In this document: positions 1 to 13,806 of the stretch, in pieces
Position numbering within the stretch: the stretch's first letter is position 1
Layout of the letters: each line of letters opens with the position of its first letter
IMG/VR virus record: IMGVR_UViG_3300034093_001947
DNA from: a virus
Taxonomy: Duplodnaviria; Heunggongvirae; Uroviricota; Caudoviricetes
Direction: 5' to 3' (one strand)
DNA length: 64,000 nucleotides
Notes under the pieces: generated by a model
The model's input: only the letters and a program-made list of their open reading frames with translations
What the model was told of the DNA's origin: nothing
Databases searched by the model: none
Translations under genes and position numbers: made by a program

Positions 1-516
1 TCCATCTTTTAAAGATGATAATACTAGACTGATACAATATCTATCTTCGATAGGATTAATGATATTATGAGGTACTCCGACTTGCACAACTGAAGGAAAT
101 CCTATAGGGGCTGAAAACAACAAATCAACTTCAGTTCGATTATATCCTATGTAATGTGAGTTAACCGCAGATAAACTTTGCTCAGTGCGAACAATATTAT
201 CTTTTGGTTTGTACCAATTCATAATGCTGTTAGCACCTCCAAATATCCAATTTATTTTAGTAAAGTCTCCATGTTTAACATCAACATGTATACCGCTAAA
301 AAAATTAGGAGTAGAGTAGAACACTTCGCAATGATCTGGAAAAATATCTAAATCTGCTAGCAAGTCTAGCATGTCCGAGTTAATATGTTCCTTGATACTA
401 ATTGAAGAATGATAGGATTTTTTGCCATTAACTATGTTAGGAAGACTTGTTAAACTATGTTTGTTTTTTAACAAGTCAACATTAAAATTTAAGTTATGAT
501 GATACGTTGTCATCAT
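1..516 (-). CDS. Fe(II)/2OG dioxygenase-fold (DSBH) hypothetical protein, runs off the window edge
   Basis: Manual translation from ATG at 516: MMTTYHHNLNF...FSGIHVDV...PHNIIN...RYCISL. HxD...H...R pattern; resembles the 2626-3201 product. Confidence 0.7.
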   Translation of the reverse strand, partial: MMTTYHHNLNFNVDLLKNKHSLTSLPNIVNGKKSYHSSISIKEHINSDMLDLLADLDIFPDHCEVFYSTPNFFSGIHVDVKHGDFTKINWIFGGANSIMNWYKPKDNIVRTEQSLSAVNSHYIGYNRTEVDLLFSAPIGFPSVVQVGVPHNIINPIEDRYCISLVLSSLKDG

Positions 517-541
517 TTATTTACCGAAAGACTTATTAGGT

Positions 542-612
542 GTGGCTATGTTGTAATGGTAGCAACCTAGACTGTGACTCTGGTAGTACGGGTTCGAGTC
601 CCGTTAGTCACC
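542..612 (+). tRNA. tRNA-His(GTG)
   Basis: Acceptor GTGGCTA/TAGTCAC, anticodon loop CT-GTG-AC, GGTTCGAGTCC T-arm; followed by CCT rather than CCA. Confidence 0.9.
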
Positions 613-651
613 CCTAATAAGTTTTTGCCACATTGTGGCACCAATAAATAC

Positions 652-743
652 GGAAAGTAATGCAGGGGAGTTGGTTCCCCGACCAGCCTTGAAAACTGGG
701 TTCTCAGAAATGGGATGGGGTTCGACTCCTCTGCTTTCCACCA
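652..743 (+). tRNA. tRNA-Ser(TGA)
   Basis: Acceptor GGAAAGT/GCTTTCC, loop CT-TGA-AA, long variable arm, CCA end; enlarged D region. Confidence 0.85.
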
Positions 744-748
744 ATAAT

Positions 749-1261
749 ATGAACGAAGATTATTTTATCCCTGTTAACACTGACATTAATTTTTTACCTA
801 AAGTAAAAGAATTTATTCCGAATGCAATTTGGAAATGGGTTCCGTCTATGTTTATTGCTACAAATTTATCTAGTACGCACATCGGTGATGATCAATTACT
901 GAGTAAAATTCATAAGGAATTTTTAGGAGAGTTAAATCTTTATAAAATTCCATGTAAATCTGTCTATGGATGGCACCAGGATAAAAATTCAATAGGGTGT
1001 TCATTAAATATGGCATTAGATCGATATCATTGTCATACATTGTTTTCAGTTGGGAATCACGGAACTCCTTTCTTACAAAAAGTAATTGAACTTGAGTACG
1101 ATCCTAATACATGGTATGCATTTAATTCAAAACAGGTGCATACTGTAATAAATCTAGACGAAAAAGATAGATATCTACTTTCATATGTACTACCGGGAAT
1201 TTTTTCCTACACAGATCTAAAATCTTGGTTAGTACAGCATACATATACTTCTCTGATGTAA
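749..1261 (+). CDS. Fe(II)/2OG dioxygenase-fold hypothetical protein
   Basis: ORF restarted at ATG 749 after tRNA-Ser; GWHQD...VHTVIN...RYLLSY motif; stop lies inside tRNA-Trp. Confidence 0.65.
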   Translation: MNEDYFIPVNTDINFLPKVKEFIPNAIWKWVPSMFIATNLSSTHIGDDQLLSKIHKEFLGELNLYKIPCKSVYGWHQDKNSIGCSLNMALDRYHCHTLFSVGNHGTPFLQKVIELEYDPNTWYAFNSKQVHTVINLDEKDRYLLSYVLPGIFSYTDLKSWLVQHTYTSLM

Positions 1262-1320
1262 TGGCAGCATAGCGGTCTCCAAAACCGTTCGTTGGGGTTC
1301 GAGTCCCTAGGGGAGTGCCA
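1247..1320 (+). tRNA. tRNA-Trp(CCA)
   Basis: Loop CT-CCA-AA, T-arm TGGGG-TTCGAGT-CCCTA, CCA end. Confidence 0.9.
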
Positions 1321-1325
1321 GTTTA

Positions 1326-1442
1326 AGGATACATACAGCAATGTCTAACGACACGTTGGTTCGATTCCAACATTATCCGCTTTGGATGATTCGCTCAATG
1401 GTAGAGCAATGGGCTTCATGCCCATCGAAACTGTATCCTGTT
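1326..1442 (+). ncRNA. Y-RNA-like module 1 enclosing a circularly permuted tRNA mimic (T arm, closed acceptor, D arm, anticodon-like arm)
   Basis: AGGATACA/TGTATCCT stem + TACAGCAA; GTTGG-TTCGATT-CCAAC; ATTATCC-GCTTT-GGATGAT; GCTC-AATGGTA-GAGC; ATGGG-CTTCATG-CCCAT. Confidence 0.75.
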
Positions 1443-1449
1443 TTATTAT

Positions 1450-1527
1450 GTAGGGGTTCCAGAGAGGCTTAATGGCACTGATTGCAAACCAGTTGATTCG
1501 TGGGTTCAAATCCCACTCCCTACTCCA
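1450..1527 (+). tRNA. tRNA-Cys(GCA)
   Basis: Loop TT-GCA-AA, U73, CCA end. Confidence 0.9.
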
Positions 1528-1532
1528 TTTAT

Positions 1533-1606
1533 GCGTGGTTAGTTTAATGGTAGAACCAGACGTTGCCAACGTTTAAGCAGGAGTTCGATTCTCCTACCCC
1601 GCACCA
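1533..1606 (+). tRNA. tRNA-Gly(GCC)
   Basis: Loop TT-GCC-AA, cloverleaf, CCA end. Confidence 0.9.
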
Positions 1607-1626
1607 AGTTAGTTGTAAATATTGTT

Positions 1627-2196
1627 ATGTATTTTGTTAAATTAAAAGAACAATTTTTTCTAACACTAGATGCAAATATTGCAAAAGAAGAATTTGCAAA
1701 TTTTGGATCTGTAATCGGCAATGAATTTAAAGGTATACAATATAATAGAATACCGCAGTATTGTACTGATACTATGTTAGAAGTCGTTCCGGAAAATTAT
1801 AGAAAACATTTTACATCGGGCATTATGAAAATTAATGTACCGTATGCAAGACCACACACTGATAGCGGAGTAACCGCAGTATTAAATTTTTATGTACAGA
1901 CTGCTGATGCTGTGACAGTATTTTATAATCAGCTTACTGAAGATTCGGTTTTAACAAAGATAAAAAATCAAACTAACGGAAGTGTCTTTAAATTAAAAGA
2001 TCTAGTTCCTGCTGCAAATTTTAAAGCATTGCCGGGAGACGTTTGGTTACTGGATGTAACGAAGCCGCATTCTGTTATTGCTGCATCCGCAGTTGATAGA
2101 GTAGCATTCTGTTTACACACTAACAGTTTATCTTTCGAAGAAGTCAAAAAAATATTTGAATGCCCGGGTGGTGGAATGGTAGACACACTTTACTGA
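1627..2196 (+). CDS. Fe(II)/2OG dioxygenase-fold hypothetical protein
   Basis: RPHTDS...PHSVIA...RVAFCL motif; 3' end overlaps tRNA-Leu. Confidence 0.65.
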   Translation: MYFVKLKEQFFLTLDANIAKEEFANFGSVIGNEFKGIQYNRIPQYCTDTMLEVVPENYRKHFTSGIMKINVPYARPHTDSGVTAVLNFYVQTADAVTVFYNQLTEDSVLTKIKNQTNGSVFKLKDLVPAANFKALPGDVWLLDVTKPHSVIAASAVDRVAFCLHTNSLSFEEVKKIFECPGGGMVDTLY

Positions 2197-2247
2197 GGTA
2201 AGGAAAAACACTAGGATGTGAGAGTTCGAATCTCTCCTCGGGAACCA
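2162..2247 (+). tRNA. tRNA-Leu(GAG)-like, irregular anticodon arm
   Basis: Leu-type D arm (GGTGGAATGGTAGACAC), long variable region, A73-CCA; anticodon stem pairs best around a 6-nt loop CTGAGG. Confidence 0.65.
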
Positions 2248-2252
2248 TGTAT

Positions 2253-2329
2253 GCCTTCGTACGCTAATTGGGAGTGCGGCTTGCCTTAGAAGCAGGTGGT
2301 TGGGGGTTCGAATCCGCCCGAAGGTACCA
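2253..2329 (+). tRNA. tRNA-Leu(TAG) with short variable loop
   Basis: GCCTTCG/CGAAGGT, CTTGC-CTTAGAA-GCAGG, 5-nt variable loop, ACCA end. Confidence 0.8.
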
Positions 2330-2331
2330 TT

Positions 2332-2458
2332 TTTGTTATCCCGTTTGATCCCAAAGTGTTCGCATAATGGGTAGGGTATCGAGCAGTGCGGCGATATAGT
2401 TGCCATTGCGTCGTGAGGTTGTGGAACAATAAACTGATAAAATCCACAATATAACAAA
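2332..2458 (+). ncRNA. Unidentified structured RNA between tRNAs
   Basis: Closing stem TTTGTTAT/ATAACAAA, internal hairpins GCAGTG..CATTGC and TTGTGGA..TCCACAA. Confidence 0.45.
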
Positions 2459-2467
2459 TCTGTTTAT

Positions 2468-2544
2468 GCCCCGTTACGCTAATTGGTAGTGCGGATTCTC
2501 TCAAAAGGAGTTGGCTGTCTGTTCGAATCAGACACGGGGTACCA
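2468..2544 (+). tRNA. tRNA-Leu(CAA) with short variable loop
   Basis: GCCCCGT/ACGGGGT, ATTCT-CTCAAAA-GGAGT, 5-nt variable loop, ACCA end. Confidence 0.8.
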
Positions 2545-2549
2545 ATTAC

Positions 2550-2624
2550 AGTTCCTTATTTCAGAGGTAGAATATCACATTGACATTGTGAAGGTCACTG
2601 GTTCGATCCCAGTAGGAACTACCA
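2550..2624 (+). tRNA. tRNA-Val(GAC)
   Basis: TCACA-TTGACAT-TGTGA, CCA end. Confidence 0.9.
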
Positions 2625-2625
2625 A

Positions 2626-3201
2626 TTATATAATTAAAGGTTTGAAAAGCTCAACTATTTCTTCCCAAGTAGAAAATTTTGCAGTTGCCCGAATGCTTAG
2701 ACACCAGCGAATATTTGCAATGTCCCGATTAGCAACATTATGAGGTATATTAGTTCTAACTAAACAAGGCCCTTCAATTCTAGCAGATTCAATGCAGACA
2801 ACATCGGCTCGATCAAAATGAATATATGGTGTGCCGCCGCTTGACATTTTAATATTATTTTGTTTACCGGGCAACGGGGAATACCAAAACATTTCTGAAT
2901 TAGCAGACCCCCATACTATATTGATACCCCATACACAATGAGTAACTCCGTTAATAGTATCAATATGAATGTCTAGATTGCTGTTAGCATTACCTCTAAA
3001 AAAAATACATTCTGAAAGAATATCTATTCCGAAATTTTTAAAAAATTCAATAGACTCATCTGTAAGAAATTCTTTATGGTCAACTAACTTCATAGCCCAA
3101 TTGTGCTCTGATTTAGAATAAACCAAATCAATATAATGTTGCATGTCTATATTATCTTTTAATATTTTGACAGGAATATTTAATTTGTAATGGTTTTGCA
3201 T
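2626..3201 (-). CDS. Fe(II)/2OG dioxygenase-fold hypothetical protein
   Basis: DIHIDT...PHNVAN...RWCLSI motif. Confidence 0.65.
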   Translation of the reverse strand: MQNHYKLNIPVKILKDNIDMQHYIDLVYSKSEHNWAMKLVDHKEFLTDESIEFFKNFGIDILSECIFFRGNANSNLDIHIDTINGVTHCVWGINIVWGSANSEMFWYSPLPGKQNNIKMSSGGTPYIHFDRADVVCIESARIEGPCLVRTNIPHNVANRDIANIRWCLSIRATAKFSTWEEIVELFKPLII

Positions 3202-3213
3202 TACGTATTTATT

Positions 3214-3288
3214 GCCCTAGTAGCTCAGTGGTAGAGCACCGTCTTGATAAGGCGGGTGTCCGTGGATCGTTCCCACGCTAGGGTACCA
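3214..3288 (+). tRNA. tRNA-Ile(GAT)
   Basis: CCGTC-TTGATAA-GGCGG; T-loop ATCGTTC; CCA end. Confidence 0.9.
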
Positions 3289-3307
3289 AAAAAAAAATAA
3301 AAAAGAC

Positions 3308-3336
3308 TTGACAGAGTCTTAAATAGACTGTATAAT
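3308..3336 (+). promoter_or_regulatory. sigma70-type promoter
   Basis: TTGACA-17 nt-TATAAT exact consensus. Confidence 0.9.
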
Positions 3337-3392
3337 AAACACATACGCTAGCAACTGTTAGCACTGTTCTTTAAAAAGTTAAGTTGGTATTT

Positions 3393-3476
3393 GCCCCGGT
3401 GGTGTAATGGTAGCCACGCTGGTCTTAGAAGCCAGTGGAGAAATCCGTGTCGGTTCGAGTCCGACCTGGGGCACCA
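3393..3476 (+). tRNA. tRNA-Leu(TAG), canonical long-arm type
   Basis: CTGGT-CTTAGAA-GCCAG, long variable arm, ACCA. Confidence 0.95.
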
Positions 3477-3584
3477 TATACAAACATACTATAGGTTGGG
3501 TTAGATTCGCGGTCTAACTATTTGGGTCTGTAGTGTAGCCCTCCAAAACTACACGCGACTAAGATACATAGTGTGTTTCTATAT
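3476..3584 (+). ncRNA. Structured RNA, TAGTGTGTTTC family copy A
   Basis: AAACATACTAT/ATAGTGTGTTT stem extended by ATATA/TATAT; two internal hairpins. Confidence 0.5.
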
Positions 3585-3591
3585 GGTGAAT

Positions 3592-3675
3592 GCGAGAGTG
3601 GAGAAATGGTATACTCAGGAGACTTAAAATCTCCCGTCGAAAGGCATGCGGGTTCGAGTCCCGCCTCTCGTACCA
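3592..3675 (+). tRNA. tRNA-Leu(TAA)
   Basis: GGAGA-CTTAAAA-TCTCC, long variable arm, ACCA. Confidence 0.95.
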
Positions 3676-3684
3676 AACAATTAC

Positions 3685-3759
3685 CTGGCGTTCGTTCAAT
3701 GGATAGGACAGCATTCTTCTAAAGTGCGAATAGAGGTTCGATTCCTCTACGCCGGACCA
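3685..3759 (+). tRNA. tRNA-Arg(TCT)
   Basis: GCATT-CTTCTAA-AGTGC, CCA end. Confidence 0.9.
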
Positions 3760-3780
3760 AGTTTTTTATTAAGGATCAAA

Positions 3781-4014
3781 ATGAGAGCAAGAACATCTGC
3801 AACTTTTAAGTTGAGTAAGCGAACAAAAACAATGTTAGCATTGATGAAGTTTAAAAATAATCAAGACCGTCATGGTTTTAAAAATGCAATGATTGATGCA
3901 CAAGTGGCAGCAAGCATTGTTCCAAAATCAGAAAAGCGTGATCGTAACGCACCTCGCCCACAAGGCACTAGTTACGTGACCAATGACACTGGTACTGCAA
4001 GTACTAGCGTTTGA
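3781..4014 (+). CDS. Small basic hypothetical protein
   Basis: ATG at 3781 with AAGGA upstream; the longer track ORF runs through tRNAs. Confidence 0.6.
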   Translation: MRARTSATFKLSKRTKTMLALMKFKNNQDRHGFKNAMIDAQVAASIVPKSEKRDRNAPRPQGTSYVTNDTGTASTSV

Positions 4015-4025
4015 GTAAAAAATAT

Positions 4026-4101
4026 TCCGCAGTAGCTCAGTCGGTAGAGTAGAAGACTGTTAATCTTTTGGTCCGTGGTTCGAGCCCACGCTGTGGAGCC
4101 A
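4026..4101 (+). tRNA. tRNA-Asn(GTT)
   Basis: Loop CT-GTT-AA, G73-CCA. Confidence 0.95.
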
Positions 4102-4109
4102 AGTTAAAT

Positions 4110-4199
4110 GGTGCGGTCCTATAATGGTATTAGAGCGGATTGCTAATCCGTCGATCGGTGAAAGCCGGTTTCTGAGTTCGAGTCTCAGTCGCACCGCCA
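4110..4199 (+). tRNA. tRNA-Ser(GCT)
   Basis: Loop TT-GCT-AA, long variable arm, G73-CCA. Confidence 0.95.
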
Positions 4200-4207
4200 A
4201 GTTTTTT

Positions 4208-4272
4208 AGGATCAGTTCAGCAAACATAATAAAAATTTCATTTATACTGAAACATAAAAAGTTGATCCTGTT
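4208..4272 (+). ncRNA. Y-RNA-like module 2 (minimal)
   Basis: AGGATCAG-TTCAGCAA ... TTGATCCT-GTT. Confidence 0.7.
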
Positions 4273-4279
4273 ATTTTAT

Positions 4280-4371
4280 GCCCCTGTAGTTTAATGGTAG
4301 AACAGCGGATTTATATCCCGTATGCAACAGATAATTGGTTAGTGTGGGTTCGACTCCCGCCGGGGGTACCA
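4280..4371 (+). tRNA. tRNA-Ile(TAT) with long variable arm
   Basis: GCGGA-TTTATAT-CCCGT, ~22-nt variable region, ACCA. Confidence 0.8.
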
Positions 4372-4372
4372 A

Positions 4373-4524
4373 GTTTTGAGATAGACGATGAGATGAGTCC
4401 CTTGTATTCTAGTGCCCTATTCTTGAGCATGACACACCAGTAGAATTGTACAAGGTCTGCATAAACTCTCTCATTCGAGACAACCCAGCGAGTCCTTAAG
4501 AAAGATAGTTGGTCTCTCAAAAAC
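4373..4524 (+). ncRNA. Unidentified structured RNA
   Basis: TTTTGAGA/TCTCAAAA closing stem; nested GATGAGA..TCTCATT, CCTTGTA/TACAAGG, TTCTA/TAGAA helices. Confidence 0.5.
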
Positions 4525-4530
4525 CTATTT

Positions 4531-4592
4531 AGGTTAATTACAGCAATAAAAAATGGCTGTCTGCTAGGACTTTAAACTAGTATTAACCTGTT
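4531..4592 (+). ncRNA. Y-RNA-like module 3 (minimal)
   Basis: AGGTTAAT-TACAGCAA ... ATTAACCT-GTT. Confidence 0.7.
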
Positions 4593-4798
4593 GAAAACCC
4601 GGTTTACTGTTTTACGTTATTAAAACAGCGTCCCTGAAACGATAGAACAGGGGGTACACTAGGACCTGACCTTACAGTCTTCTGTTCGGAGATACTGAAA
4701 ACTGCCTAGGGGCGGGAACAAAACCCGTCCAGATGGAAAAATTAGTGGACAGAGTAACCGCTCAGTTTGGGGCTCATGTGGTGTGAGTGGCTAGACAC
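4593..4798 (+). ncRNA. Unidentified multi-hairpin RNA (~200 nt)
   Basis: CTGTTTTA/TAAAACAG, CCCTG/CAGGG, CTAGG/CCTAG, GCGGG/CCCGT hairpins; no ORF. Confidence 0.45.
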
Positions 4799-4872
4799 TT
4801 TATTGAAATGCATTAGGTATCGTATCAAGTAGTGTAACTACTTTGCCAGCGGTGTTAGTGTGTTTCAATAAA
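4799..4872 (+). ncRNA. Structured RNA, TAGTGTGTTTC family copy B
   Basis: 17-bp stem TTTATTGAAATGCATTA/TAGTGTGTTTCAATAAA with AAGTAG-TGTAA-CTACTT hairpin. Confidence 0.5.
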
Positions 4873-4882
4873 TAGATTTAAT

Positions 4883-4956
4883 GCGGGGTTAGTTTAGTGG
4901 TAAAACGAGATCCTTCCAAGTTCAAGTCGCGAGTTCGATTCTCGCACCCCGCTCCA
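4883..4956 (+). tRNA. tRNA-Gly(TCC)
   Basis: GCGGGGT/ACCCCGC, loop CT-TCC-AA, U73-CCA; weak anticodon stem. Confidence 0.8.
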
Positions 4957-4964
4957 AGTTTTTT

Positions 4965-5040
4965 GCGTCCTTAACTCAGTTGGTAGAGTTCTGCCTTTAC
5001 ACGGCAGCTGTCGGCGGTTCGAGCCCGTCAGGACGTACCA
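4965..5040 (+). tRNA. tRNA-Val(TAC)
   Basis: CTGCC-TTTACAC-GGCAG, ACCA. Confidence 0.95.
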
Positions 5041-5047
5041 AGATAAT

Positions 5048-5124
5048 CGGTGTGTAGCTCAGCTTGGTAGAGCTCTGCGTTTGGGACGCAGTGGTCGCAT
5101 GTTCGAATCGTGTCACACCGACCA
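5048..5124 (+). tRNA. tRNA-Pro(TGG)
   Basis: CTGCG-TTTGGGA-CGCAG, C1:G72, ACCA. Confidence 0.95.
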
Positions 5125-5129
5125 ATAAA

Positions 5130-5280
5130 CTCTCCCTTACATACGGAGTACAATGAGATAAGTAGTATGTAAACGAATTTAGACCGGACCTGTATCCATA
5201 CTCCGGTTCCGCTGAAGCGAAAACAGGATGGGCTGCTCTCACGGGGTTTGATGGTTTCCCGACACAACAATAATCATCAA
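5130..5280 (+). ncRNA. Unidentified structured RNA with probable pseudoknot
   Basis: TTACATAC/GTATGTAA; GACCGG/CCGGTT crossed by CCTGT/ACAGG; TTGATGGTT/AATCATCAA. Confidence 0.45.
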
Positions 5281-5289
5281 CAAGAATTA

Positions 5290-5363
5290 CGCGGGTAGGG
5301 TGGTCACCACACCGGTCTCATAAGCCAGGTGCATCGGAGGTTCGAATCCTTCACCCGCATCCA
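5290..5363 (+). tRNA. tRNA-Met(CAT)-like, initiator-type C1:A72, reduced D arm
   Basis: CGCGGGT/ACCCGCA, loop CT-CAT-AA, T-arm GGAGG-TTCGAAT-CCTTC, TCCA end. Confidence 0.7.
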
Positions 5364-5368
5364 TATTT

Positions 5369-5443
5369 GGGCTGATAGTGATAATGGGAGCACAGTGGCT
5401 TTGCAAGCCTCGGGTGGGAGTTCGATCCTCCCTCGGTCCACCA
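5369..5443 (+). tRNA. tRNA-Ala(TGC)
   Basis: G3:U70 pair, loop TT-TGC-AA, ACCA. Confidence 0.9.
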
Positions 5444-5458
5444 ACAAAGGAATGTTAT

Positions 5459-5596
5459 ATGAGTACAAAAGATACACTTGATAAAGCATATGGCAATATT
5501 CCCAAAGAGCCGGTATCATTTATACAATTTGATTTACCGACATTTAGAGGAATTAAGTATTACTGGCTGCGGCTAGTAAGACTTTTTACTCGTTAA
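5459..5596 (+). CDS. Small hypothetical protein
   Basis: AAAGGA SD then ATG 5459 (MSTKDTLDKAYGNIPK...). Confidence 0.55.
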   Translation: MSTKDTLDKAYGNIPKEPVSFIQFDLPTFRGIKYYWLRLVRLFTR

Positions 5597-5608
5597 GTTT
5601 TGACCTTT

Positions 5609-5727
5609 AGGTTCTTTTCAGCAATTAAAAATAATCTTTCTGTAAAAAAGAGGGGCTGGGTTCGAATCCCGGGCGTGAGTTGGTCTTCACGTTGGTGTAG
5701 TGGTAGCACGTAAAAAGAGAACCTGTT
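5609..5727 (+). ncRNA. Y-RNA-like module 4 enclosing a circularly permuted tRNA-Tyr(GTA) mimic
   Basis: AGGTTCTT-TTCAGCAA ... GAGAACCT-GTT; inside TCTTT-CTGTAAA-AAAGA, CTGGG-TTCGAAT-CCCGG, GCGTGAG-TTGGTC-TTCACGT, GTGT-AGTGGTA-GCAC. Confidence 0.8.
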
Positions 5728-5756
5728 TAACTTTAACTTTAACTTCAAGGAAACAC

Positions 5757-5984
5757 ATGGCACGTTTAACGTCACAAGCAGCGGTAGAGATGGTAGGTAA
5801 TCGTTTTGATCTAGTATTGATTGCATCAATTCGTGCTAGAGAATTAAAGCGTGGGCATATGCCTATGGTTACCTGTAATAACGGATTCAACGTCACTGCA
5901 CTTCGAGAAATTGAAGCAGGTAAAGTGGGACGTGATTATTTGGAAAAGCTTCGCAAGCCTCCTAAAAAGAGTGAACACTATTAA
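5757..5984 (+). CDS. rpoZ: DNA-directed RNA polymerase omega subunit homolog
   Basis: MARLT...GNRFDLVLIASIRAREL.RG...VTALREIEAGKV matches the RpoZ signature; AAGGA SD. Confidence 0.85.
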   Translation: MARLTSQAAVEMVGNRFDLVLIASIRARELKRGHMPMVTCNNGFNVTALREIEAGKVGRDYLEKLRKPPKKSEHY

Positions 5985-5989
5985 AGATC

Positions 5990-6448
5990 ATGCAGCCAAT
6001 CTATCTTAATAAAGAAGTCGATAAGACCGGCGTTGAGCTAGAAATTTTACACGTTGAACAAATAGCCAATAGTCCAGTCTATACATTTTTTATCAGACAC
6101 ATGGCCGAATTGATAGATTCCGGGTTCGCAATGGCACGAACTAGTTGGAATGACAATGATTGTGGAGCCATTTATGCAGAAGAGAATGGTGTTATAGTAG
6201 GGGCCATAATCTACAGTAGAGCATACCTACACAAAAATTGCCTGTGGATCGAACTTAGTGCAGTACGTAGTGATTGCCGGAAACGCGGCATTTATTCAGT
6301 GTTACATAATTATTTTGAAATGCTTGCAAAAAAAATGAACTGCGATTCTATTTCTAGTAAAGTACATAAAAACAATGTAATTCGATTATCTTCAGCAGAA
6401 AAAGTTGGCATGAATATTGCTTTCTACCAAATGGTTAAAATGATCTAA
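5990..6448 (+). CDS. GNAT-family acetyltransferase
   Basis: WIELSAVRSDCRKRGIY (motif A: V..D.R.RG). Confidence 0.7.
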   Translation: MQPIYLNKEVDKTGVELEILHVEQIANSPVYTFFIRHMAELIDSGFAMARTSWNDNDCGAIYAEENGVIVGAIIYSRAYLHKNCLWIELSAVRSDCRKRGIYSVLHNYFEMLAKKMNCDSISSKVHKNNVIRLSSAEKVGMNIAFYQMVKMI

Positions 6449-10563: not shown

Positions 10564-11438
10564 TGAAAGATCAGCAACACACATCCTCAAAGTTTCACAC
10601 ACAGAATATAGTGTCGTATCCTTATGCAGAATACGGCATTAAGGGAGTCGGTAAGAATCGACTCCCTATTTTGTCAATGGACAAATATATTGATCACAGT
10701 CAAGACCAAAAACTTCATATCGAATGTTGCAAAGGTCTTGCATTAAACGAAGAATATAAAATGGGGATGACCTACGGAGCATTACCCCCAGAAGAAGTTG
10801 CCAGGTTTGGTGGACACGATTGTTGGAGTGAGATGCTTCAGCAACTGCATAAGTACGATCCAACAGGAGTGCATCGAGAAGCTCTTAAAGAAGTTATTGA
10901 TCGAAGTCCCGGAAAAGAAATGCAGGCAATGTACAAATATGCTTATTTTGCCATGGGTGCAGTTATTCCGTGGTTCTTTGCATTGTACTTAAAGAAAAAT
11001 GATTTTGGAAAGAAAACAGAGGACTTTGGGCAATGGACCGAAGCTGCAAAATTGTTTCCTAATGTAGTTGAGTACATTAACCAACTGCCGTTTAAGACAA
11101 TTGGTCGAGTTTTATTTTTTACAACTTACCCAAATGCCGGAGTAGTAACACATCGAGACAGTGTTATGGCTGAACACAGTGATCACAATATCAATTTATT
11201 TTTTGCAAGTGGAAGTCGCCCTAGTTTTATTTGGGACGAAAAGGCTAAGAAAAAGATTTATCTAGATAGTGACGCTCGTAGCTACTTCTTTAATAACCGC
11301 GACTACCACGGAGTTGACCCAGAACCAGTATTTCGATATACTTTAAGAGTTGACGGAACGTTTACTGACGAGCTATGTGAACAATTAGGATTGGAAGACG
11401 GCCGCACTTGGAAGTGGAGTTACGAAACTCCTGATTAG
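10563..11438 (+). CDS. Fe(II)/2OG dioxygenase-fold hypothetical protein
   Basis: VTHRDS...YHGVDP...RYTLRV. Confidence 0.55.
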   Translation: MKDQQHTSSKFHTQNIVSYPYAEYGIKGVGKNRLPILSMDKYIDHSQDQKLHIECCKGLALNEEYKMGMTYGALPPEEVARFGGHDCWSEMLQQLHKYDPTGVHREALKEVIDRSPGKEMQAMYKYAYFAMGAVIPWFFALYLKKNDFGKKTEDFGQWTEAAKLFPNVVEYINQLPFKTIGRVLFFTTYPNAGVVTHRDSVMAEHSDHNINLFFASGSRPSFIWDEKAKKKIYLDSDARSYFFNNRDYHGVDPEPVFRYTLRVDGTFTDELCEQLGLEDGRTWKWSYETPD

Positions 11439-12055
11439 AGTTTACCGTGATCTGTTAGACCGAGTGTTTGATATGCCCACATTCTTTCGCTACATTGAAA
11501 ACATTTTAAACATCTACCTGTTACTTGTTCAGTACAGGTATGCGTTAGATTTGCGAGTGCCTGAATTTCAAGTTGATCAACAAGATCAACTATGTGTGTC
11601 TTGTACAGCATCATAAAAGGCATCTCTATTCTAGGATTACTATTAGATATAGGCCTGTTAGGAAACTGCCATTTTGGATCTCCCCAAGGTTGTGGCGGAT
11701 TTTGATTGATGCCTATAAACAATTTTTCTATTTCTGGATACTTTATTAGAACATGTCTAATGCCTGTTTGATTAATCTGGGTATGATGAATATCCGGTGA
11801 CCCTACTTTGATAGGGTCAGGTAGTCGAATATTAAACAGTAGATTTATGTACTCAATGATACCGTCAATGTACGCATACGAGCCGTCGTGTTTGGCAATA
11901 TAAAAAGGTTGGATGCTAGCAGTAGGACAATCTTTAAGCATTAGATAGAGCAATACTGCACTGTCTAGTCCTCCGGACATCATTAACCCGTAAGCTGTAT
12001 TCTGTTGTAAATTCACAACGATCTGTTTACCATCTATCCTTGACTGAATTTCCAT
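11435..12055 (-). CDS. QueC-like PP-loop ATPase (7-cyano-7-deazaguanine synthase-like)
   Basis: MSGGLDS PP-loop; C-terminal HTC...RCLKCFQC Zn cluster. Confidence 0.65.
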   Translation of the reverse strand: MEIQSRIDGKQIVVNLQQNTAYGLMMSGGLDSAVLLYLMLKDCPTASIQPFYIAKHDGSYAYIDGIIEYINLLFNIRLPDPIKVGSPDIHHTQINQTGIRHVLIKYPEIEKLFIGINQNPPQPWGDPKWQFPNRPISNSNPRIEMPFMMLYKTHIVDLVDQLEIQALANLTHTCTEQVTGRCLKCFQCSERMWAYQTLGLTDHGKL

Positions 12056-13297: not shown

Positions 13298-13464
13298 AGG
13301 TTAGGTACAGCAACATTCATTAACTATGAACTGTTAGACACTGTGGTAGAAACTGGAGCAGAGTGCGTAAAAACACCGAGCGTTGAAGGGGTCTATTGAA
13401 GCAAGACTAACGAGCACAGAGTGATGGCCTGTGTAAAATAAAAGCAGTCAACAACTAACCTGTT
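13298..13464 (+). ncRNA. Y-RNA-like module 5
   Basis: AGGTTAGG-TACAGCAA ... CTAACCT-GTT, multi-hairpin interior. Confidence 0.7.
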
Positions 13465-13471
13465 AAATCCT

Positions 13472-13728
13472 AGGATGGATTCAGCAACTTAAACAATAAA
13501 CTCTGAACTAACTGCTATAGAAGATGGTCGCAGGACACAGTAGAAATACTGTTCTAGGAAACTAGACTCGAAGGAATAGACGACACATTGGAAAGACTTT
13601 GTATGATGATTGTACAGACACAACACAATCTAGGCGACATGAATTGTATGCTAGGCTTGCGAGACTTGAACCGATATACTGGGGATGGGGGTAAGCAGAA
13701 AATAAAAATCCGTCTCAGCCATCCTGTT
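13472..13728 (+). ncRNA. Y-RNA-like module 6
   Basis: AGGATGGA-TTCAGCAA ... CCATCCT-GTT; GAAA tetraloop hairpins inside. Confidence 0.7.
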
Positions 13729-13734
13729 GTAGTT

Positions 13735-13806
13735 AGGTTAATTACAGCAATTTTAAATTGTATCATTAAAACCCGTGGGAACAACAAAGCCCACATTTAA
13801 CCTGAA
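13735..13806 (+). ncRNA. Y-RNA-like module 7, abutting the RBS of the TROVE-like gene
   Basis: AGGTTAAT-TACAGCAA ... TTAACCT-GAA then GGAAAAGAAAATG. Confidence 0.7.

Follow-up and report, generated by a model that had tools for sequence, protein, structure and literature searches.

Introduction

The Ro60 protein and its Y RNAs form a classic RNA-surveillance particle, and the reason for the tRNA mimicry of bacterial Y RNAs is still open. In bacteria, Y RNA genes are found beside the Ro60 gene, on the same strand and with several per genome, and their products mimic tRNAs (PMC4201824). The YrlA RNAs are built from T, acceptor-like, D, and V arms, with near-invariant stems in the D and T arms; Yrn1 of D. 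radiodurans has an anticodon-like arm with a loop of 6 nucleotides (nt), and Yrn2 is contained in one precursor with a tRNA (PMC4201824). The YrlA of M. smegmatis, which has an acceptor of 7 base pairs (bp), is cleaved by RNase P and receives CCA in vivo (PMC4201824). This study deals with a 117-nt element (hereafter referred to as the module) at positions 1326-1442, + strand, of a 64,000-nt stretch of DNA (the window) from the Caudoviricetes record IMGVR_UViG_3300034093_001947. The module is a conserved structured RNA gene that holds a complete circularly permuted tRNA cloverleaf, and it is probably a partner RNA of a Ro60-like protein encoded in the same window.

Three other systems are relevant to this locus. 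The Ro60 of Thermus phage phiLo binds two Y-like RNAs of the phage (Yrl1/Yrl2) and the PNPase of the host (PMC12135203). In Bas63 (Escherichia phage JohannRWettstein), the protein gp130 has high structural similarity to Ro60 and counters the Ppl defense; its gene is located directly upstream of the tRNA stretch of Bas63, and it was guessed by the authors that some of the "tRNA genes" are Y RNAs (bioRxiv 10.1101/2024.10.10.617714). The Class I RNAs, reported as unique to Dictyostelia, are recognized by a covarying short end-stem, an 11-nt motif ending in ACAGCAA, an (A)AG start, a CUGU end, and a length of ~60 nt (PMC7919456). A pull-down with Class I RNA yielded, as one of four proteins, DDB_G0281243, which is without known function. 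In Cyanidioschyzon merolae and other algae, permuted tRNA genes give rise to working tRNAs via a circular intermediate that is formed at a bulge-helix-bulge motif. Large tRNA arrays of phages are widely thought to offset tRNA-cleaving defenses.

Results

A complete tRNA cloverleaf opened in the variable region

The minimum free energy fold of the module is the same as its centroid fold, with a free energy of -40.1 kcal/mol and a z-score of -4.4; none of 200 shuffled sequences was as stable. The two ends are joined by an uninterrupted closing stem, in which no bulge-helix-bulge motif was found by inspection of the fold, and between its strands are placed, from 5' to 3', the single-stranded motif UACAGCAA, a small hairpin, a T arm, an acceptor hairpin closed by its own loop, a D arm, and an anticodon-like arm (Table 1). 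The module is a complete circularly permuted cloverleaf that opens in the variable region, its ends lying after the anticodon-like stem and before the variable-arm hairpin. Below, the closing stem, UACAGCAA, and the 3' end of the module are referred to as the handle, and the enclosed tRNA-like body as the payload.

ARAGORN made no tRNA call on the native sequence of the module, and the Rfam tRNA model aligned to its 5' half with 18.7 bits. The sequence was then re-permuted in silico, i.e., the acceptor was re-opened, the closing stem was dropped, and the small hairpin was either kept or removed. All 30 constructs made in this way, from the window copy and 14 distinct orthologues, were called tRNA at the default threshold of ARAGORN. 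A tmRNA was considered as well and rejected, with no ARAGORN tmRNA call in the window and no Rfam tmRNA match at the module.

A preliminary description of this DNA, made from its letters, had proposed a permuted tRNA mimic opened at the variable loop, which is borne out by the fold, the calls on the re-permuted constructs, and the covariation reported below. The order that it gave (T arm, closed acceptor, D arm, anticodon arm) agrees with the fold at every position; the anatomy it described was right, and what it missed were the small hairpin and the single-stranded UACAGCAA. It had also likened the topology to that of the YrlA tRNA-like domain. This topology is indeed that published for YrlA (Chen et al. 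2014, PMC4201824); in addition, 1326-1442 is exactly the span over which the Rfam YrlA model (RF02553) aligns end to end. Membership in the YrlA family does not follow, with a score of 25.9 bits (E 0.0017) against a gathering score of 69 and with no GNCGAA; the GNCGAAN0-1G motif, the presumed Rsr site, was not found in the 5' part of the module, AGGAUACAUACAGCAAU. Elsewhere, the same model scored 25.1 bits on the orthologue in one related phage (L025), and 40.1 and 28.5 bits on other handle-borne tRNA mimics.

Covariation and the parts of the tRNA that are kept

Orthologues were searched for with a pattern that combined the handle motif with the small hairpin and the T loop and put no constraint on the T stem. 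This pattern hit 23 viral contigs and, combined with loci fetched via the neighboring protein, gave 15 distinct sequences. It replaced a scan of viral contigs for the T arm only, in which 112 of 122 hits were real tRNAs of many isotypes. Similarly, an alignment by MAFFT with RNAalifold misaligned the variable arms and missed the acceptor and anticodon-like helices, and it was replaced by a structure-aware split and a covariance model.

In the regex-based split of the 15 orthologues, seven different helices were found for the acceptor stem, with 100 of 105 cells canonical, and seven for the anticodon-like stem, with all 75 cells canonical. With the 3' strands shuffled among the sequences as the null, none of 5000 shuffles was as good for either stem. 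The five non-canonical acceptor cells represent one conserved C-A at the third pair in a single clade. No variation was seen in this set in the T arm, the D stem, or the small-hairpin stem.

A covariance model on the structure of the module gave scores of 120-135 bits for the 15 sequences and brought in six more distant members with 64-90 bits. In the resulting alignment of 21 sequences, standard pairs made up 98.1% of the cells, compared to 83.1% after shuffling (0 of 500 shuffles matched the real alignment) and 36-45% with slid partners. Changes on both sides were present in 21 of the 32 pairs, and the covariation score was 0.368 versus 0.120. Because it was fitted to the model, this alignment is biased in favor of the structure; the split, which is independent of the model, leads to the same conclusion. 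Among the pairs that change on both sides are the first three of the closing stem, two of the D stem, and those of the small hairpin, all three of which do so in distant members; for the closing stem, compensatory changes were found in six of its eight pairs across the 21 relatives. The T stem is invariant in 21 of 21 sequences, though it was left free by the search pattern, and the D stem in 20 of 21. The acceptor measures 7 bp (8 bp in some) in every member while its sequence changes freely.

The anticodon-like loop behaves differently from a decoding loop. It has 5, 6, or 7 nt among the 15 orthologues, which show six different triplets. Of the eight 7-nt loops, one has UCA, two each have CCA, AAA, and CAA, and one has UAU. 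All eight retain U33, and their position 37 is often a pyrimidine (U in the window copy). The equivalent of discriminator G73 varies among the orthologues (4 with G, 10 with U, and 1 with C), and CCA, which is encoded by the three neighboring tRNAs that were inspected (Trp, Cys, and Gly), is never encoded by the module or its orthologues. In five distant members the T arm, the 7- or 8-bp acceptor, and the D arm are kept, and the anticodon-like arm is a 4-bp tetraloop hairpin or is lost. Because loop, discriminator, and arm are unconserved and there is no CCA, the triplet UCA is regarded as an accident of this copy and the RNA as not built to decode. The preliminary description had read a UCA anticodon and a tRNA-Sec/Ser identity; this part of it fails on the varying length of the loop, the triplet, the discriminator, and the reduction or loss of the arm in distant members, and the comparison of orthologues rules out a Sec/Ser or opal-suppressor identity. 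The degenerate, unconserved remnant that it had named as the opposite outcome is countered by the retention of the module, with covariation, in its relatives.

In the nearest relative, which has a Ro-like protein 97% identical to that of the window, 108 of the 117 positions of the module are identical. The differences, six substitutions and three unaligned bases, are confined to the closing stem (clamp), acceptor hairpin, anticodon-like arm, and linker. A search of 2,292 tRNAs from the phage and its relatives revealed no parent tRNA; the best global score was 31/75, with mixed isotypes. The sequence closest to the 5' half of the module (1384-1425) was a class II tRNA-Tyr(GUA) of a related phage (L025:3233-3314, score 31/75); this likeness may be due to chance because the acceptor and anticodon-like stems vary among the orthologues. 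A sister sub-class was also observed (L053:4432-4545, L056:4069-4184, L015:4135-4250, L048:755-872, and L013:1611-1726), which has the handle GGGAUAC/GUAUCCC, where the first pair is G-C and not A-U. Its variable-arm hairpin is longer, and its anticodon-like arm is replaced by a mini hairpin or missing altogether.

One handle on nine RNAs

The handle pattern AGG-N5-(U/A)(U/A)CAGCAA has seven exact hits in the window, all on the + strand, and none of 100 shuffles reached seven hits with one mismatch allowed. In the whole record there are nine handle modules, all on the + strand and all within genome positions 88,137-103,002, with none elsewhere, and CAGCAA is invariant in all nine. The 5' strand of each handle copy has its own complementary strand 60-260 nt downstream, which closes the copy and is followed by G(UU); the closing stems differ between copies and stay complementary. 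An interpretation as a mobile element bounded by terminal inverted repeats was discarded, as the "repeats" differ between copies while staying complementary, with all copies on one strand. The handle is absent from Rfam 15.

The payloads in the window are of several kinds, namely, two tRNA-like ones (the modules at 1326 and 5609), three that are almost empty, and two that are large and structured (167 and 259 nt). The last three modules are located within 520 nt upstream of the gene at 13817-15232 and run up to its start. The preliminary description had suggested an independent recruitment of tRNAs for the payloads at 1326 and 5609. The two classes differ in the sequences of their T and D arms, but both can be read on one plan, i.e., handle, hairpin, T arm, acceptor, and D arm, with or without an extra hairpin.

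Co-location was surveyed in 978 kb of sequence around 80 genes homologous to that at 13817-15232, where ~1 hit per 100 kb per strand is expected by chance. The handle motif was found 202 times on the strand of the gene versus 14 times on the opposite strand (~14-fold), and 177 of these 216 hits are closed by a complementary strand. Of the 202 hits on the gene strand, 100 are located ≤500 nt upstream of the gene, and 69 of the 77 loci with upstream sequence have one ≤600 nt upstream. A T-loop motif is contained in 22 closed survey modules, which show several different tRNA-like designs. A 204-nt handle module of a related phage (L025:7694-7897) was observed to have T and D arms split by an "acceptor" helix of ~20 bp, which bears a large inserted domain with a second T-loop-like motif.

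In one lake metatranscriptome, a 251-nt contig with a depth of 296 is identical to 13481-13728, i.e., to most of the sister module at 13472-13730, while the other contigs listed on the stretch have depths of 3-13. It is a weak hint that the handle-RNA family is expressed, since contigs cannot show ends or levels.

A protein with a predicted Ro60 fold

The gene at 13817-15232 matches two Pfam families, namely, PF11443 (DUF2828, E 8e-27) and PF25043 (DUF7788, E 3e-50). An AlphaFold2 model of its product, built with 71 diverse sequences, has a predicted local distance difference test score (pLDDT) of 91.2 and a predicted template modeling score (pTM) of 0.89. The 13 best fold matches in the PDB are all Ro60/TROVE proteins (Xenopus, human, Deinococcus, and Thermus phage phiLo; E 1e-8 to 3e-6, TM-score 0.45-0.63), PDB 9KOP and 9L5Y (phiLo Ro60) being among the top three, and isolated vWA domains rank far behind them. 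Among Swiss-Prot models the top five matches are Ro60, followed by Tetrahymena telomerase p80, with TEP1 in ninth place. The residues D277, S279, S281, T349, and D381 of the MIDAS (metal ion-dependent adhesion site; DxSxS…T…D) are invariant in the 71 sequences. According to the model, the protein has a HEAT-repeat ring and a vWA domain with MIDAS, in the fold of Ro60. No match to RtcB was found in the record, which is rated 65% complete.

The family is very large, with 6,304 clusters at 50% identity, and is present in 711 sequenced phages, e.g., FelixO1-like, Listeria, Staphylococcus, Campylobacter, Vibrio, and mycobacterial phages. FelixO1 and similar ~86-kb Escherichia/Salmonella phages have homologues at 38% identity over 97% of the length. 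A literature search on DUF2828 found no relevant paper.

Setting of the module in the tRNA array

The window corresponds to bases 89,200-153,199 of the 228,849-base record, and near-identical DNA is contained in many lake-water metagenomes; a megablast search of window positions 1-6000 against sequenced phages gave no match. The first 13 kb of the window are a dense single-strand tRNA array, and ARAGORN predicts 25 tRNAs for the window, compared to 39 for the record as a whole. The module is tightly packed between two of these (Table 1). All 15 orthologues are likewise located in tRNA arrays, on the strand of the tRNAs and either 4-8 nt after or 6-11 nt before a tRNA, and these tRNA neighbors differ from phage to phage.

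Several other features of the array were noted. The tRNA-Cys at 1450-1527 is identical to the copy in the nearest relative (L215) at 57 of 78 positions, compared to 74 of 74 for tRNA-Trp and 73 of 74 for tRNA-Gly, which suggests a swapped tRNA cassette. At 2162-2247, ARAGORN calls a tRNA-like sequence with a 2-nt "anticodon" (tRNA-???), which is an odd or damaged member of the array because the Rfam tRNA model gives it only 34.7 bits. Directly 3' of the 5609 module, a homologue of the omega subunit of RNA polymerase is encoded (5757-5984; Pfam RNA_pol_Rpb6, E 4.8e-13), and it is followed by a GNAT acetyltransferase (5990-6448). An open reading frame (ORF) on the - strand (11435-12055), located between two blocks of the array, matches QueC with its C-terminal 60 residues (E 4.6e-11). 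In the same region of a related phage there is a permuted (two-piece) tmRNA gene (L025:1138-1397; Rfam tmRNA_permuted, 119 bits).

Table 1. Coordinates in the window of the module and its parts, the flanking tRNAs, the sister modules, and the Ro60-like protein gene.
Feature	Position	Strand	Basis and remarks
tRNA-Trp(CCA)	1247..1320	+	ARAGORN; Rfam tRNA 49 bits; 3' end 5 nt before module
Closing stem (handle), 5' strand AGGAUACA	1326..1333	+	Fold; 8 bp, pairs with 1432-1439
Single-stranded handle motif UACAGCAA	1334..1341	+	Pattern search; whole-genome scan
Small hairpin UGUC-UAAC-GACA	1342..1353	+	Fold; position of class II variable arm, "V" arm of YrlA
T arm GUUGG-UUCGAUU-CCAAC	1355..1371	+	U54 U55 C56, A58; canonical loop
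Acceptor hairpin AUUAUCC-GCUUU-GGAUGAU	1372..1390	+	7 bp closed by 5-nt loop; no CCA encoded
U8-C9	1391..1392	+	
D arm GCUC-AAUGGUA-GAGC	1393..1407	+	A14, G18 G19
A26	1408	+	
Anticodon-like arm AUGGG-CUUCAUG-CCCAU	1409..1425	+	5-bp stem
A-rich linker CGAAAC, 3' closing strand UGUAUCCU, GUU tail	1426..1442	+	…CCUGUU; tail conserved
tRNA-Cys(GCA)	1450..1527	+	ARAGORN; begins 7 nt after module
Sister module, minimal payload	4208..4272	+	Handle pattern
Sister module, minimal payload	4531..4592	+	Handle pattern; Class I model 16.8 bits
Sister module, second tRNA-like payload (hairpin, T arm, closed acceptor, D arm)	5609..5727	+	Fold; handle pattern
Sister module, 167 nt, not tRNA-like	13298..13464	+	Handle pattern
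Sister module, largest (259-nt payload), not tRNA-like	13472..13730	+	Handle pattern
Sister module abutting the start of the Ro60-like gene	13735..13806	+	Class I model 22 bits
Ro60-like protein gene, 471 aa, DUF2828 + DUF7788/vWA (predicted)	13817..15232	+	Pfam; AlphaFold2; fold search

Discussion

A candidate partner RNA of the Ro60-like protein

The explanation favored here, with a probability of roughly 60%, is that the module encodes a tRNA-mimicking, Y-like partner RNA of the Ro60-like protein that consists of two parts, a handle and a permuted tRNA payload, because the handle is common to nine RNAs that are clustered around the gene for this protein. For the protein binding, the processing, and the recruited factors, we infer the following scheme. 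The product would be a stable non-coding RNA of ~115-125 nt. Its handle (the 8-bp end stem, UACAGCAA, and the …CCUGUU 3' end) would serve as the binding site for the DUF2828/DUF7788 ring protein, and its payload, which has the form of a class II-like tRNA body, complete and circularly permuted, would act as the effector end. Such an RNA would be transcribed together with the tRNA array and released by ordinary tRNA processing, where the 3' processing of tRNA-Trp would set the 5' side of the module and the RNase P cut at the 5' end of tRNA-Cys its 3' side. The tRNA shape may provide nuclease-resistant stability, as for YrlA and Yrn1 in bacterial Ro60 particles. It may also present a surface resembling that of a tRNA, to which tRNA-handling enzymes or other factors could attach and through which the Ro-like ring would be tethered to them; recognition by enzymes that measure the acceptor-T minihelix would agree with an acceptor kept strictly at 7 bp and a T arm that does not vary. 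The freedom of the anticodon loop speaks against decoding, and most likely the RNA does not decode and is not a working tRNA.

A number of observations weigh against the proposed partnership. The likeness to Ro60 rests on the predicted fold, because no match to Pfam TROVE (PF05731) was found in the 65% complete record and a phmmer search against PDB sequences returned noise only. The module is located on the same strand as the Ro60-like gene and 12.4 kb away from it, beyond the ~4 kb of YrlA, and its handle is without the GNCGAA/CGAA of known Ro60-binding sites. In the payload, the combination A15-C48 and the variable position 21 are departures from the canonical tertiary pairs of tRNA. Three RNA runs and one doubtful run (probably DNA), searched as Logan contigs, gave no cover assignable to 1326-1442. 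Lastly, gp130 of Bas63 rescued T7 on a Ppl host without Bas63 RNA (bioRxiv 10.1101/2024.10.10.617714), and its anti-Ppl activity needs no partner RNAs because it was effective in T7 in this way.

Alternative explanations

The handle may instead be a processing or stability signal of a polycistronic tRNA transcript, e.g., a spacer cassette or a site where nucleases enter or stop, that works independently of the Ro60-like protein, and the tRNA-like interior would then merely make a good substrate for tRNA-processing enzymes. The tRNA-like spacing in the arrays, the cassette-like mobility, the almost payload-free minimal modules, and the spread of the nine modules through the array all agree with such a signal. 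It is nevertheless considered unlikely, given that half of the handles in related loci are placed ≤500 nt upstream of the Ro60-like gene and not between tRNAs, that a mere cleavage site needs no invariant CAGCAA with a covarying stem and large conserved payloads, and that the arms of the payload are under clear structural selection. Slightly less credit is given to a tRNA decoy, which would absorb or sense a tRNA-directed defense enzyme of the host (an anticodon or acceptor-end nuclease), with or without the Ro-like ring. A decoy would suit the general view of tRNA arrays as an offset to tRNA-cleaving defenses and the fast change of the acceptor and anticodon-like arms, which is seen even between phages with 97% identical Ro-like proteins; moreover, gp130 of Bas63, with its Ro60-like fold, is a proven counter-defense factor (bioRxiv 10.1101/2024.10.10.617714). 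However, the anticodon loop of a decoy aimed at an anticodon nuclease would be expected to stay defined, and here both its length and its sequence drift; there is no known target, and Ppl is predicted to act on DNA, with gp130 alone being sufficient against it (bioRxiv 10.1101/2024.10.10.617714).

The resemblance to tRNA itself raises two further explanations. A working permuted tRNA, made in two pieces that are held by the closing stem, charged, and reading UGA or another codon, would require an RNase P cut before G1384, trimming of the acceptor loop to the discriminator, and addition of CCA. The full cloverleaf with its 7-bp acceptor, U8, A14, G18 G19, and U54 U55 C56 would allow for this, as would the U33 of all eight 7-nt loops, and the YrlA of M. 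smegmatis offers a precedent for a cut by RNase P and the addition of CCA in vivo (PMC4201824). Against it stand the loop of 5-7 nt with six triplets among close orthologues, the reduction or loss of the arm in distant members, the U at position 37, the unconserved discriminator, and a CCA that is unencoded, unlike in the three neighbors. In addition, the closing stem has no bulge-helix-bulge (by inspection), the same handle bears payloads that are not tRNA-like, and UGA shows no sign of being recoded, given that long ORFs are read normally with table 11. A working tRNA is therefore very improbable. The chance that the module is a functionless, decayed remnant of a tandem tRNA duplication, i.e., the 3' half of one copy and the 5' half of the next, is close to nil. 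A tandem duplicate whose outer halves had decayed would leave a 3' half in front of a 5' half, but the 15 distinct orthologues and six distant relatives show compensatory changes in every variable helix, the 8-bp closing stem and CAGCAA are common to non-tRNA modules, and there is no parent among the 2,292 tRNAs. The covariation refutes a remnant, since the orthologues are not recent copies of one sequence.

Significance

As a variation on the tRNA-mimic theme of Y RNAs, the module represents a new class of payload, namely, a full permuted cloverleaf with 21 members, covariation, and an unconstrained anticodon-like loop. It is the most tRNA-like payload in the survey, at a locus where nine RNAs combine one handle with differing payloads next to a protein of predicted Ro60 fold that belongs to a very large unstudied family. 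The pattern of conservation separates the features of tRNA that are needed (shape, elbow, and acceptor length) from what is not needed (decoding). The module would offer a clean test, provided by nature, of the role of tRNA mimicry in Ro particles, and the counter-defense phenotype of Bas63 puts experiments within reach.

Comparison with known systems

The likeness to YrlA and Yrn1 extends over several levels. It includes a 5'/3' stem with a protein site (putative in the module), the order of V hairpin, T arm, closed acceptor, and D arm, the near-invariance of the D and T stems, the location on the same strand as a Ro60-type gene, and the presence of several payloads per genome. The off-size anticodon-like loop of Yrn1, the co-transcription of Yrn2 with a tRNA, and the 7-bp acceptor of the M. 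smegmatis YrlA have their counterparts here as well, a predicted one in the case of the co-transcription. In contrast to YrlA, the module has UACAGCAA at the place of GNCGAA, it unites the V, T, acceptor, and D arms with a 5-bp anticodon-like arm, and its ends are in the variable region, not in the anticodon stem. Furthermore, its proposed partner protein is of the DUF2828/DUF7788 type and not Pfam TROVE, and the gene of the RNA lies inside a tRNA array.

With phiLo, this phage shares a Ro60-fold ring (predicted here) and RNAs of the phage located just upstream of its gene. However, the protein of phiLo is a recognized Ro60 homologue, and its Y RNAs are stem-bulge-stem RNAs with CGAA for which no tRNA-like domain was described (PMC12135203). 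The genes of gp130 of Bas63 and of the protein encoded in the window both adjoin a phage tRNA stretch; gp130 may be one of the homologues at 38% identity. The permuted tRNA genes of algae resemble the module in that a 3' half is encoded upstream of a 5' half and the acceptor strands are separated by a short sequence, whereas the module is without a bulge-helix-bulge or a conserved anticodon and shares its handle with RNAs that are not tRNA-like.

For the handle itself, the closest counterpart is the core of the Class I RNAs (RF01414), with which it has in common the short covarying stem, the placement of the motif (…ACAGCAA) after the 5' strand, four of five near-invariant positions, the (A)AG start, the …CUGU 3' end, and a variable remainder. 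Class I RNAs are 42-65 nt long, compared to 117 nt for the module, 62-67 nt for the minimal modules of this genome, and 50-63 nt for those of its relatives. The Class I model gave no hit at its gathering score of 41.5 bits, and 1326-1442 was left unmatched owing to its payload; sister modules in this genome scored 23, 22, 17.5, and 16.8 bits, and modules in relatives scored 40.1, 33.8, 30.9, and 26.7 bits, aligned end to end. In contrast to the phage RNAs, Class I RNAs are eukaryotic, have their own promoters, and bear no tRNA-like payload, and their known direct binder is a protein with an RNA recognition motif (CIBP/Rnp1A). It is a tentative and rather doubtful idea that the handle is homologous to the Class I core and that DUF2828 rings and Class-I-like RNAs form one ancient ribonucleoprotein family, distinct from the classical Ro60/Y RNA. 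The likeness could give the orphan RNAs of social amoebae a candidate protein partner. If the idea is true, this family would be spread through phages, bacteria, and some eukaryotes, and the module would be a full tRNA grafted onto its handle.

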